Source: Octopus sinensis
Lineage: Eukaryota
DNA length: 64,000 nucleotides
Direction: 5' to 3'
Assembly: GCF_006345805.1 (NCBI RefSeq)
Contig: NC_042998.1
Location: forward strand, 62,496,001 to 62,560,000
The position numbers and the translations under genes are program-made. Under the pieces are notes generated by a model that was given only the letters and a program-made list of their open reading frames with translations, had not been told where the DNA came from and ran no database searches. Of the stretch, positions 2,518-59,160 are shown one piece after another. Within the stretch, counting starts at the first letter, position 1; each line of letters begins with the position of its first letter.

Positions 2518-2557
2518 TATTCTTGATAAGTCACATCATGACGAAACCGTTTGAATA
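2518..2557 (+). ncRNA. Minimal type I hammerhead ribozyme-like motif, U3:A8 variant, in a decayed PLE-like segment
   Basis: tattc-TTGATAA-gtca(catca)tgac-GAAA-ccgttt-gaata: 5-bp stem I, 4-bp stem II, stem III mutated relative to accggt. Confidence 0.6.
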
Positions 2558-2744
2558 AATATATTTATATATTTTATAAATTTCTCATTTCATTAAAATT
2601 TTCTTTCAATTTAGCATTCTGCATTTTTACAATTTTTCCTGCATCATTTCTCCACGTGCGGTCAACAAAACCCCACCATTATTGATCTATATATATATAT
2701 ATATATATATATATATATTATATATAATTATATACTGATACTCT

Positions 2745-3056
2745 GTCTGATTATGCTGACGAGTTTTCCAGCTGATTTGATCAGCGGAGCAGCTTGCTCG
2801 AGAAATTAACGTACAAGTGGCTGATCCTTCCACAGACTCCCATACCGTTAACCTATTTCTCAGGGAGATTCAGTATTCGGCGTAATACAGAATGTGACAT
2901 GGATGGCCCTTTGAAATACAGGTACAGCCGAGTGGATTGGAGCAACGTGAAATAAACTGTCTTGCTTAAGGACACAACGCGCCACCAGCTATCGAATTCA
3001 CATGTTTACGATTGTAAGCCAAACACCCCTAACTCCTAAGACATGTGCCTTCACCT
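2745..3056 (-). mobile_element. SINE family C (tRNA-derived head on minus strand)
   Basis: Shares gaaattaacgt..aagtggctga...gaatgtgaca...ccctttgaaatacaggtac and gagtgga.tggagcaacgtgaaataaa.tgtcttgc with the copies at 13815 and 36903. Confidence 0.75.
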
Positions 3057-3074
3057 TCCCATATACATATATGT

Positions 3075-3960
3075 ACAGGGTGCGATGAGCACATTGTCGC
3101 CATTTTATATTTTAATTTCGCGCATGCGTGTTGTTTGTTTTTATTTTATCGGTTACACAGTATTGTAGGGTCAGTTGGAGACCGTCTGAGAAAAACAGAA
3201 CCATGAAGCAATTCACTCTGGCAGAGATTTAGAAATGACATGCTGCACTGCTTGGCATTTACGCAGTAAGCTCCAGTAAGAACATTTCAGTGTTTGGGAG
3301 TCAATCTGAGGAAAGTGCAATCTGAGGACATGTACCGAGAGTGATAAAAATCAAACATCCAGTCAACATGATGGCGTTTGGAGTGATTACTAATGATGGT
3401 GATGTTATGCCTCCATTCATCTTCCCACACAGCCTCACACTCAACACTGAGGTCTACATCAAATGCTTGGTGGAGGCAGTACTGTCCTGGGTCAAGAGGG
3501 TGGCTGCTGGAAGACCCTATGTCTGGAAACAGGATTCTGCACCATGTCATACAAGCAGGAGAACCCAGTCATGGCTGTCAGAAAATTTCTACGAGCACAT
3601 CATCCCTAACATTTAGTCACATAACTCCCCAGACTACAACTCCCTTGATTATTATGACTGGAGCGTGGTTGAGCGAGAGACCAACAAAACTCCTTGTAAC
3701 ATCAAAGATGAACTGAAGGCAAGGGTTATTGCAACTTTGACCATCTTAAACAAGGAGGTAATCCAGAAGAGTTGCTAGAGATTCCGAAGTCGCCTGGAGA
3801 CTGTCGTTGAAAACAATAGCGATTTTATTGAATAAATTTACTCTTTAGTATTTCAAGATATTTTTATGTAATTTTGGTAAATATATCTGTTAAAATGAGA
3901 TGTCCGCGTTATTTTCATTTTTGCGTAATTTAAACGACAATTTATTCCCCCGCATTCTGT
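3075..3960 (+). mobile_element. Tc1/mariner superfamily, maT-type (DD37D) transposon relic
   Basis: Translation ...WKQDSAPCH...I*SHNSPDYNSLDYY has 37 residues between the 2nd and 3rd Asp, with an in-frame stop. Imperfect TIRs (acagggtgcg...attgtcg / cgacaat...cgcattctgt). Confidence 0.8.
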
Positions 3961-56075: not shown

Positions 56076-56438
56076 ATATTGTACAAAAGATTGTGGGCAA
56101 GGCTAAAACAATGCGAAGTAAATGCAAGGTAAATCACGCGAAAACAAATATATGAATTAATGTAGACTTGCCTAGTATTCAATATTTCGGGGTTATGACC
56201 CCATTTTCAAGAAAATTAATGAATGTTGCCGATATGCGTGTGTGTGACCATGTCCATTCCACACACGCTCACACACACGCACATCGGGAACATTCATTAA
56301 TTTCTTGAAAATGGGGTCATAACCCCGAAATATTGAATTCAAGGTAAGTCTACATTAATTCATATATTTCTTTGGTGGTGATTTACGTTGCATTTACTTC
56401 GCATTGTTTCGGCCTTACCCACGATCCTTTATACAATA
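56076..56438. mobile_element. ~360-bp fold-back element with two inverted U3:A8 hammerhead-like motifs (56178-56213 minus, 56302-56337 plus)
   Basis: Arms of about 170 bp. Motif ttc-TTGAAAA-t-gggg(tcataa)cccc-GAA-ATAT-T-gaa. Embedded in (TA)n. Confidence 0.8.
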
Positions 56439-56519
56439 TATATATATATATATATATATATATATATATAATATATATATATATATATATATATATATAT
56501 ATATATTTATGTATATATA

Positions 56520-56735
56520 TATACTTATGTATGTATTTGTGTATCTGTATTTGTCCTCCCACCATCGCTTGACAACTGATGTTGGTGTGCTTAGATTCCC
56601 GCAACGTAATGGTTCGGCAAAAGATACCGATAGAACATCTACTCGGCTTACAAAGAATAAGAACATCTTCTCGGTTTACTTAAAGGCGGTGCTCCAGCAT
56701 GGCCGCAGTCAAATGACTGAAACACGTAAAAGGAT
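56520..56735 (+). mobile_element. SINE family A, 3' half
   Basis: catcgcttgacaactgatgttgg...ccagcatggccgcagtcaaatgactgaaac. Confidence 0.75.
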
Positions 56736-58376
56736 AAATGTACAAAAGAATATACATATTAATGTAAGAAAAATCTAACTAACTAATTAAAGCAATGTAA
56801 CAGATTAACCGACCGACTAATTAACTAAGCAGCCATCACACAGACCAACACACCTTACCAATGAAAGAAGCTAGAAAGCTGGAAGGAAAGAAAGGGAAGT
56901 ATATATAAGAGAAAATAATAAGAGATGTAAGGAGTGGGGGGTGTCGTGTGGGCGTCAGGTAGAAAGTCACGTAAATGGGAAATAGTTAAAAAATATTCTT
57001 GGTCGGTGGAGGAAATGTAATATATTGCTATCTACGTGAATATTTTATTTACTTCGACTCAGAAGACATTATATCTTCAAGACTATCTTCGATGTGTTAA
57101 AAATGCTTTTTCTATTGAAATAAATGGTGGTGGCGGTGGTGGTGGTGATGGTGGTGATGCTGATGATGAGTTAGGTGGTGACGGGGGGTAGACATGACAA
57201 CGAAGACAACGACGACGACATGGACAAATATGATAATGACAATGATGATGATGATGATGATGACGGTGGTGGTGGTGGTGGTTATGCGGTTGTGATGATA
57301 GTCATGGTGATGATGTGAATGATGAGGATGAATGTAGCAAAACTGATGATGATGGTGATGATGATGGTGATGATAACGATGATGAAAATGATGGTGATGA
57401 TGATGATGGCGATGATAATGGCGATGACAATGGTGGTGATTTAAAGATAATGGTGGAGGTTTTAGTAGTGATGGTAGTGATGATGATGATGATGATGAAG
57501 GGGCGCCGACGACGACGTCAACGATAATGATAAGGTTAAACTGATGATTGTGCTATGATGTTGATGACAAAGACGGTGGTGATAATGATGATGATGGTGA
57601 AGCAAATAATGGTGTTGATGATGATCTTGATGACAACGACGATGATCCCCCTAAATCACCGAATTTATCAATCTTATCATAGATGTTTACCGGTGTGTAA
57701 TATATACATATAAACATACTGTGTACCTCACACAGTACACACACACACACACACACACACACACACACACACACACACACAAGTATGTATACATATGTAT
57801 ATATACGCCTACAAACTTGTTTATATAATTTTGAATATACATGCGTATATATATATATATATATATATATATATATAATATAATACATATATATATATGC
57901 TTTTGGTGCGAATGGTTTTGTTATACGGTGCTGTGTTTTACAACCCTGAAAATAATAATGATGGTATTTTTATACGCCTAAAGCTTATAGCTTAATAATG
58001 GGGCTTATATAAGTCGAGGGCATATATGCCCCATTATTCGACTATTTTCCTTAGTCATTGCACGGTGATTGCTGTAAGTTTTAAGCTTATAACATATACC
58101 ATTATTAATATATATATATATATATATATATATATATATGTAGCAAATCCCCAAAACGCGAAGAACAAACACAAAAAAGAACAACGTGAGGATGTGGCAC
58201 ATGTAAAGTATTAGAAGACGCTCATGGAAAGGATGTAATACATACACACACACATATACCTTAACACATATATAGGTATATACATTTATTTACATCATAT
58301 ATACATATAACAAATCTCTCTCCCCCTCTCTCTCTCTCCCTATATATATATATATATATTGAATATATCATACACA

Positions 58377-59160
58377 TAGGCGCAGGAGCGGCTGTGCGGT
58401 AAGTAGCTTACTTACCAACCACATGGTTCCGGGTTCAGTCCCACTGCGTTGCACCTTGGGCAAGTGTCTTCTTCTATAGCCTCGAGCCGACCAAAGCCTT
58501 GTGAGTGGATTTGGTAGGCGGAAACTGAAAGAAGCCCGTCGTATGTATATATATAAATGACAAGACAACAAGAGAATGAAAGAGACCTCGATAGTATGTA
58601 AATAGAGGAATTTATCTGTAAATATATGTGACAATTCTTCGGTAGCCATGATATAACTCCGAGTTTCGGATGTCGGAGCGGAAACCCACGCCGGCATCTC
58701 TTCAGTTATGGGGCCATCGAAAAGAAAAATACAATGAAAATGACCGTTAATTCCCCTTTGTTTTAACGGTCATTTTCATAGCATTTTTTTCGATGGCCCC
58801 ATAACTGAAGAGATGCCGGTGTGGATTTCGCCCAGACATCCGAAACTCGGAGTTTTATCATGGCTACCAAACAATTGTCAGATATTATGTTTACAGATAT
58901 ATATATATATATATATATATATATATATATATATATATATATATGTGTGTGTGTGTGTGTGTGTGTCTGTGTTAGCCCCACCTCCATCGCTTGACAACCG
59001 ATTTTGTTGTGTTTGCGTCACCGTGACTTAGCGTTTCTGGAAAGGAGACCGTCAGAATAAGTACTAGTCTTGCAAAGAAGTCCTGGGGTCGATTTGTTCG
59101 ACTAAAGCTGCTGCTCCAGCATGGCCGTAGTCAAATGACTGAAACAAGTAAAAGAAAAGA
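58377..59160 (+). mobile_element. SINE family A with a PLE-type fold-back element in its central microsatellite
   Basis: 5' half at 58377-58545, 3' half at 58940-59160. Confidence 0.8.
58613..58899. mobile_element. ~290-bp fold-back element with two inverted hammerhead motifs (58651-58709 minus, 58801-58858 plus)
   Basis: ataa-CTGAAGA-gatg...catc-c-GAA-ACTCGGAGT-T-ttat. 12-nt central loop at about 58751-58762. Confidence 0.85.

Follow-up and report, generated by a model that had tools for sequence, protein, structure and literature searches.

Swapped 3:8 core pairs as family majority states of hammerhead motifs in Penelope-like elements of Octopus sinensis

Can the tertiary pair in the core of a hammerhead ribozyme be exchanged in nature for other Watson-Crick pairs and still be kept by the elements that carry it? 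The question is raised by 64,000 nucleotides (nt) of the 2.72-Gb genome of Octopus sinensis (assembly GCF_006345805.1, contig NC_042998.1, positions 62,496,001 to 62,560,000, forward strand), called the window below. In the full-length hammerhead structure, C3 pairs with G8 (PMC9901934). The original prediction placed seven minimal hammerheads in the repeats of the window and read four Watson-Crick forms of this pair among them, including G3:C8 and A3:U8. Both of these are majority states of their repeat families and are not decay. Judged from sequence, the motifs are probably minimal type I hammerheads in terminal repeats of Penelope-like elements, likely to cut RNA just upstream of the reading frame, with a 3:8 pair under long-term but leaky selection. 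The papers cited by PMC number or preprint identifier are represented here by excerpts, and statements about them extend to those excerpts.

The main evidence is the identity of bases 3 and 8 across genomic copies. Four families were searched genome-wide with these two positions free, and reversed-pattern controls gave zero matches in every search. The totals count exact matches and so are lower bounds; listed copies are the first in genome order. The family of the motif at 18398 has 3,136 matches, and the first 100 listed comprise 89 G:C, 5 G·U, 2 C·C, 2 G·G, 1 A·C, and 1 U·C. The family of the motif at 16053 has 552, with 95 A:U, 3 C·U, 1 A·C, and 1 G·U among the first 100 listed. Neither set of 100 contains a C:G core. 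Family consensuses of CUGANGA would have refuted the original prediction, and the consensuses are not of that kind. Loose descriptors do give many chance matches in AT-rich DNA (on average 5.7 per shuffled window), and the variant cores might on that ground be taken for chance matches or decayed CUGANGA copies. Against this stand the hundreds to thousands of exact genomic matches with a variant core, the empty reversed controls, and the missing C:G cores; the majority counts of the two families refute the idea, to which we give next to no weight.

Other families have settled on other pairs. In the 56302 family (118 matches), the first 100 listed include 90 U:A, 5 U·G, 2 C·A, and one each of C:G, A·A, and G·A. 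The family of locus L311 (genomic and metagenomic loci are denoted by L and a number) is C:G in 96 of the first 100 listed of 2,335 matches, all 25 matching copies of the 2518 family in the fetched loci are U:A, and the 58801 family is C:G in both of its copies. Over all fetched loci, the 12 families with a clear majority state are Watson-Crick without exception (4 C:G, 6 U:A, 1 A:U, and 1 G:C), a count in which five families rest on only 2-3 copies and from which one mixed thirteenth family and one singleton (L003) are excluded. A permutation over 11 families gives p=7e-5, which is overstated since families share ancestry. The canonical letters C3 and G8 are missing from 8 of the 12, so that searches anchored on CUGANGA would miss these variants, as the original prediction held; the Craig 2021 search, as described in the excerpt at hand, is anchored on the core string and would miss swapped cores.

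Minor and mixed states were seen as well. Beside the UUGAAAA majority of the 56302 family, loci L412-L419 hold a minor series of CUGAGGA (1), UUGAGGA (5), and UUGAGAA (2), which could be the trace of a path from C:G through U·G to U:A, or of the same path in reverse. The seven copies of a family with an 8-nt palindromic stem III (L107, L182, L208, L319, L353) are divided between C:G, U:A, C·A, and U·G, a mixture that may reflect CpG decay or two subfamilies.

How far do the motifs stand out in the window itself? It is rich in microsatellites and broken retroelements. Repeat finding was dominated by the microsatellites, and among the 150 of 259 Rfam matches listed for the window there was no hammerhead, nearly all being microsatellite artefacts. 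The main descriptor left positions 3, 7, and 8 free and made an extra base after A9 optional; first descriptors without that base missed most sites. With 60 local dinucleotide shuffles of the window as the chance control, the strict descriptor found 8 matches against a shuffle mean of 0.5 (maximum 2), and the relaxed descriptor 19 against 5.7 (maximum 10), with a Watson-Crick 3:8 pair in 13 of the 19 against a shuffle mean of 1.5. Five of the 8 strict matches belong to repeat families, and the other three (54760+, 51157-, and 30338-) are singletons that probably arose by chance. All seven motifs of the original prediction are where it had placed them, its coordinates being stem I ends. Six were recovered by descriptor; the one at 58801-58858, missed for its bulged stem II, was read by eye, and two more motifs were found. 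The window motifs have the core bases U4-G5-A6, A9, and G12-A13-A14, the pair A15.1:U16.1, a non-G base 17, and the type I order. G10.1:C11.1 is present, as are palindromic stems III of 4-8 nt.

The two rare forms can be followed to elements with coding capacity. The A3:U8 motif (AUGAUUA, 16053-16085, plus strand) has a stem I of 4 base pairs (bp), a 2-bp stem II with a tetraloop, and a 6-nt palindromic stem III, with a predicted cut after 16081. It lies at the end of a 5'-truncated Penelope-like element body (15254-16083, plus strand; 70% DNA identity to L152) that contains a broken GIY-YIG endonuclease frame at 15394-15756. An inverted terminal-repeat fragment of the same element at 14825-15006 (minus strand; 81% to 16028-16200 in a self-BLAST) has a decayed hammerhead core, AUGAAAU. 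Loci were also chosen by the endonuclease remnant of the window with the RNA motif ignored, and in these the A3:U8 motif follows the endonuclease at a distance of about 300 nt. Longer copies of this group (L151, L152) have frames with a reverse transcriptase followed by GIY-YIG; Pfam GIY-YIG matches have E=0.1 for the window remnant and E=0.002 for the longer copies, below the curated cut-off.

The G3:C8 motif (GUGAACA, 18398-18448, minus strand) has a 7-bp stem I, an extra G after A9, a 5-bp stem II, and a 6-nt palindromic stem III, with a predicted cut after 18405. It is held in a terminal-repeat fragment at 18311-18464 (minus strand; 90% identity to L310) that comprises the hammerhead and the start of the open reading frame and forms a palindrome with an inverted fragment of the element at 18483-18543. 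Locus L310 has a near-intact frame of 1,042 amino acids with YVDD and YIGET motifs read from the sequence, and the hammerhead motif follows 918 nt behind its stop. In other copies the predicted cut site is 56 nt before an ATG, and reading from that ATG joins the start of the 1,042-amino-acid frame. Because the motif is behind the stop in L310 and before the ATG in other copies, it is placed in a terminal repeat.

The elements show a single frame with a reverse transcriptase and, at the C-terminus, a domain of the GIY-YIG type, terminal repeats, an inverted 5'-truncated partner, and a (TA)n insertion bias, as expected of endonuclease-containing Penelope-like elements; inverted partners are found in the window and in other loci, and many 3' ends run into (TA)n. 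Inverted-repeat insertions are an arrangement known from Penelope-like elements (PMC8557442). The assignment to minimal type I hammerheads of Penelope-like terminal repeats therefore holds through the A3:U8 and G3:C8 families, to which the link with a frame extends; the families at 2518, 16491, 39043, 56302, and 58801 are not tied to one. A Zn-finger-like linker ahead of the endonuclease is expected of the Neptune and Nematis clades. Cys-rich linkers occur in both element groups here, which may be Neptune-like; the protein tree was built without a named reference element. One element family encodes a protein that hardly differs from one named from Octopus vulgaris (P0001). In the G3:C8 family, a putative intron-like stretch (5' donor, branch-like site, pyrimidine tract, and AG) stops ~15 nt short of stem I, and its AG is where many short copies start. 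Intron-like signals upstream of the motif were seen in L038, L040, L055, L056, and L310, and in the 56302 family a donor-like signal stands a few bases after stem I (window 56338-56350).

In the protein tree, a supported clade of this genome (100/99) unites the G3:C8 family with a U3:A8 family (L319, with only 35% of columns filled) and the C3:G8 family of L311, whose proteins share 52-57% identity. The A3:U8 family is placed together with a U3:A8 family (53% protein identity). An alignment-based metagenome scan for relatives of the G3:C8 group gave 12 loci, four of them with a readable motif (one by descriptor, three by eye), which are C:G twice and U:A twice; G:C or A:U cores are absent from these four, and a scan with a single protein gave no match. 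Several states among related families and metagenome relatives indicate that the pair changed several times, each time onto a pair. Within families, the core stays while its surroundings vary. In the A3:U8 family, N7, loop II, and one stem I pair differ among copies, the latter being G:C in 20, A:U in 18, and mismatched in 2 (n=40). Subfamilies of the G3:C8 family differ in the sequence and length of loop II and keep core and stems constant, and one compensated pair difference in stem II separates this family from that of L311. The predicted half-dimer of A3:U8 is the minimum-energy fold, at -11.6 kcal/mol. In a metagenomic Penelope-like element (L380), a C3:G8 hammerhead read by eye ~90-130 nt after the protein match has U15.1:A16.1 instead of A15.1:U16.1.

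A number of observations weigh against selection for a paired and working core, unpaired sub-lineages among them. G3·G8 accounts for 118 of the 3,136 matches of the 18398 family. Eleven G3·G8 insertions among L201-L230 have differing 3' flanks, as do further such copies, which means that copying took place from a source whose core was unpaired; one copy (L282) is still attached to endonuclease sequence. A U3·G8 sub-lineage makes up 5 of the first 100 listed of 118 matches in the 56302 family. The young L311 family (C29:2283000-2292000; a frame of 1,044 amino acids) has C9 instead of A9 in 96 of the first 100 listed of 2,335 matches, with A in 3. In the A3:U8 motif, stem II has only 2 bp and A9 is not followed by an extra base; the half-dimer predicted for G3:C8 at minimum energy lacks stem III (-14.7 vs -12.8 kcal/mol). 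Each rare pair rests on one lineage, and the thirteenth family is mixed. In a random genome sample of 60 x 10 kb, the descriptor gave 21 matches, 8 paired and 13 unpaired at 3:8; these have no shuffle control, mostly weak AT-rich stems, and G10.1:C11.1 in only 4 of 21, and the 600 kb contain too few true motifs for a 4x4 table of bases 3 and 8. The window, with about nine motifs in 64 kb against roughly eight plausible ones in the random 600 kb, is unusually rich.

The claim that a change at position 3 is always matched at position 8 is thus true of all the copies for which it was made and fails genome-wide, given G3·G8 and U3·G8. Selection on the fold in family-specific variants is made likely by the 12 majority states, and the leaky pairing seen in G3·G8, U3·G8, and the C9 family qualifies it: in view of the unpaired sub-lineages and this family, selection looks long-term and leaky.

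The history of the G3·G8 form bears on how it is to be understood. Among the first 100 listed of its 118 copies, contig C20 holds 22 and C30 holds 13, clustered at 1.8-7.0 Mb of C20 and 11-12.5 Mb of C30. Segmental duplication is ruled out for most copies by their different 3' flanks (L338 and L339 share theirs). An ancestral intermediate is not favoured either, as G3:C8 is found in a subfamily that is more distant and differs in loop II, and G3·G8 is probably derived; copy divergences gave no date for it. The form occurs with three loop II variants, which indicates recombination or recurrence. Tandem arrays of ~170-nt terminal-repeat units with (TA)n between them mix G3:C8 and G3·G8 in a retrozyme-like fashion: L340:2029-3200 (C30 near 11.81 Mb) has 4 paired and 3 unpaired units, and arrays also occur in L338, L339, L342, and L346. 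A 544-nt A3:U8 trio in L330 looks like plain tandem duplication. Three G3·A8 copies were noted in the G3:C8 family (L341, L343), those of L343 being tandem units that include the first 60-70 frame codons. A metagenome relative of L311 (L381) has C9 too, with U3:A8.

Since broken cores such as G3·G8, G3·A8, and U3·G8 can be copied, and since each rare pair is a single lineage, G3:C8 and A3:U8 could be relics, dead or adrift, that two successful source elements happened to fix, their pairing coincidental and only C:G and U:A working. Hammerhead-free Penelope-like clades thrive (PMC8557442), and in a deep mutational scan only the G:C swap was rescued, the other double mutants in the motif being low, which counts against a working A3:U8 (PMC9901934). 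However, each rare state is two bases away from the state of the nearest sampled families, and a pair was formed both times. In subfamilies whose proteins differ by ~13% (G3:C8) or ~30% (A3:U8), all other core bases are fixed, although the loops, N7, and stem I vary, with compensated changes in stem I. We regard drift of this kind as improbable, and hold to leaky selection on the pair. A3:U8 is less secure than G3:C8, given the deep scan and its 2-bp stem II, although a fold assisted by protein or by dimers may relax this limit.

How could a swapped core still work? In the hammerhead, the role of general base falls to G12 and that of general acid to the 2'-OH of nucleotide 8 (PMC6155905). As it is this 2'-OH through which nucleotide 8 acts, its base being paired with base 3, activity can survive a swap that is compensated. 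In the Penelope hammerhead of a lizard, cutting is lost with C3G and with G8C, and comes back in part in the double mutant (PMC11167929); by analogy, the G3:C8 family would be a natural form of the rescue mutant and G3·G8 a natural form of the dead single mutant. In the octopus elements, two copies would pair through the palindromic stem III, or the protein of the element would fold the RNA, to form the active core. Cutting just upstream of the start codon would then serve to trim tandem or read-through transcripts, and it may aid the persistence of the element over evolutionary time while being dispensable for each insertion. Unpaired sub-lineages such as G3·G8 could spread briefly, and if cutting is indeed not needed for each insertion, their limited spread is to be expected.

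The same literature lends some weight to a role without cutting, in which the fold is kept for protein binding or priming, or as a translation or splicing signal near the start codon, the 3:8 pair being structural and cleavage negligible. Minimal Penelope hammerheads cut weakly in vitro, and as dimers (PMC4209133). Lizard RNA-seq has no reads ending at the cut site, and cutting mutants still insert in vitro (PMC11167929). In the octopus genome, the C9 family has expanded strongly, and the G3:C8 motif lies 56 nt before the ATG and adjoins intron-like signals. Yet the families examined have preserved the catalytic GAA, U4-G5-A6, and a base other than G at the cut site, the 3:8 pair is part of the active conformation (PMC9901934), and the lizard element does cut, with its protein required (PMC11167929). 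A purely structural role is therefore unlikely, if less so than chance fixation, and hammerheads that cut remain our preferred reading.

The other hammerheads of the window have U3:A8 or canonical C3:G8 cores. Those with U3:A8 include UUGAUAA at 2518-2557 (plus strand), where stem III is shortened by a deletion in the window copy, the family alignment having an 8-nt palindrome. The first of the two added motifs, UUGACAA at 34232-34270 (plus strand), has a second copy in L107 and lies inside a repeat with an inverted partner at 33091-33516. UUGAAAA at 56302-56337 (plus strand) has a 3-bp stem I, and its inverted copy at 56178-56213 (minus strand) is the second addition. Canonical cores are CUGACGA at 16491-16525 (minus strand), with further copies among the fetched loci; CUGAUGA at 39043-39088 (plus strand), in a palindromic insertion at 38944-39142 with a copy in L166; and CUGAAGA at 58801-58858 (plus strand), with a long bulged stem II, a near-palindromic 9-nt stem III, and an inverted partner within 58610-58902. 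Inverted-repeat structures hold five of the seven motifs first described (16053, 18398, 39043, 56302, and 58801) and the one at 34232; self-matches of the 2518 and 16491 motifs were looked for within the window, and none was found. Directly behind the 34232 element, window 34400-35911 has fragments of a different retroelement without long terminal repeats (non-LTR; zf-RVT and RVT_1 matches below cut-off). A C-terminal fragment of a reverse transcriptase frame at 49261-50030 (minus strand), which we take to be of the long interspersed element (LINE) type, is also present in L151 and has no Pfam match in the two minus-strand frames scanned.

Penelope hammerheads may be no more than passengers: on their own they cut poorly, and insertion in vitro can do without them (PMC4209133, PMC8557442, PMC11167929). 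That a tertiary pair of the active core changed repeatedly and with compensation is evidence, from evolution, for the importance of the active shape. Matched natural controls are found in the same genome, with G3:C8 beside G3·G8 in one family and even in one array, and with A3:U8, which the deep scan did not rescue. A bolder proposal, which we consider possible but doubtful, is that all four Watson-Crick forms cut in vivo with help from protein or dimers, and that the unpaired sub-lineages (G3·G8, U3·G8) represent living intermediates or else cheaters, which paired neighbours in mixed tandem arrays would cut in trans. If all four forms do cut and unpaired units are cut in trans, nature would have a route across a fitness valley; and many Penelope-like families scored as free of hammerheads would carry swapped cores.

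How do these motifs compare with known systems? U3:A8 is already published, and G3:C8 and A3:U8 as family states are new variants of a known ribozyme, subject to the scope of the literature searched. There, natural G3:C8 or A3:U8 was not found, and G3:C8 appears only as a laboratory mutant; key variant surveys and supplementary alignments lie outside that coverage, so that absence from print is not established. Lunse 2017 reportedly holds a very large set of Penelope-associated hammerhead variants. Neither natural pair appears in the excerpts of PMC10085705, PMC13725137, PMC4918200, and PMC6765202. Perreault et al. 2011 (PMC3088659) share with the present work a natural compensatory change at 3:8, of which the excerpt names only U3:A8; core variants were filtered from their final alignments unless tested.

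The closest relatives are the Penelope-like hammerheads of Cervera and De la Pena 2014 (PMC4209133), which have the same terminal repeats, short stem I, G10.1:C11.1, short palindromic stem III, an extra base that often follows A9, and numerous sequence families in each genome, with U3:A8 covariation in Schistosoma. The alignment rows in the excerpt of that paper hold CUGANGA, two UUGANAA, and one UUGAAGA, and neither G3:C8 nor A3:U8, whereas both are family majorities here; unlike those rows, U:A families also exceed C:G ones in the octopus sample (6 to 4). Animal non-LTR retrozymes (PMC7229834; bioRxiv 10.64898/2026.07.22.740005) share short tandem units and a type I hammerhead derived from Penelope-like repeats, but the arrays described here (~170-nt units, as in L340) are separated by (TA)n and mix G3:C8 with G3·G8. 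The engineered C3G/G8C mutants (Frangieh et al. 2024, PMC11167929; Roberts et al. 2023, PMC9901934) have the same G3:C8 pair, and the single mutant C3G (PMC11167929) has its counterpart in the G3·G8 sub-lineage. Those pairs were made in the laboratory, whereas the natural G3:C8 of the octopus belongs to an element family of about 3,000 matches with a near-intact frame of 1,042 amino acids.

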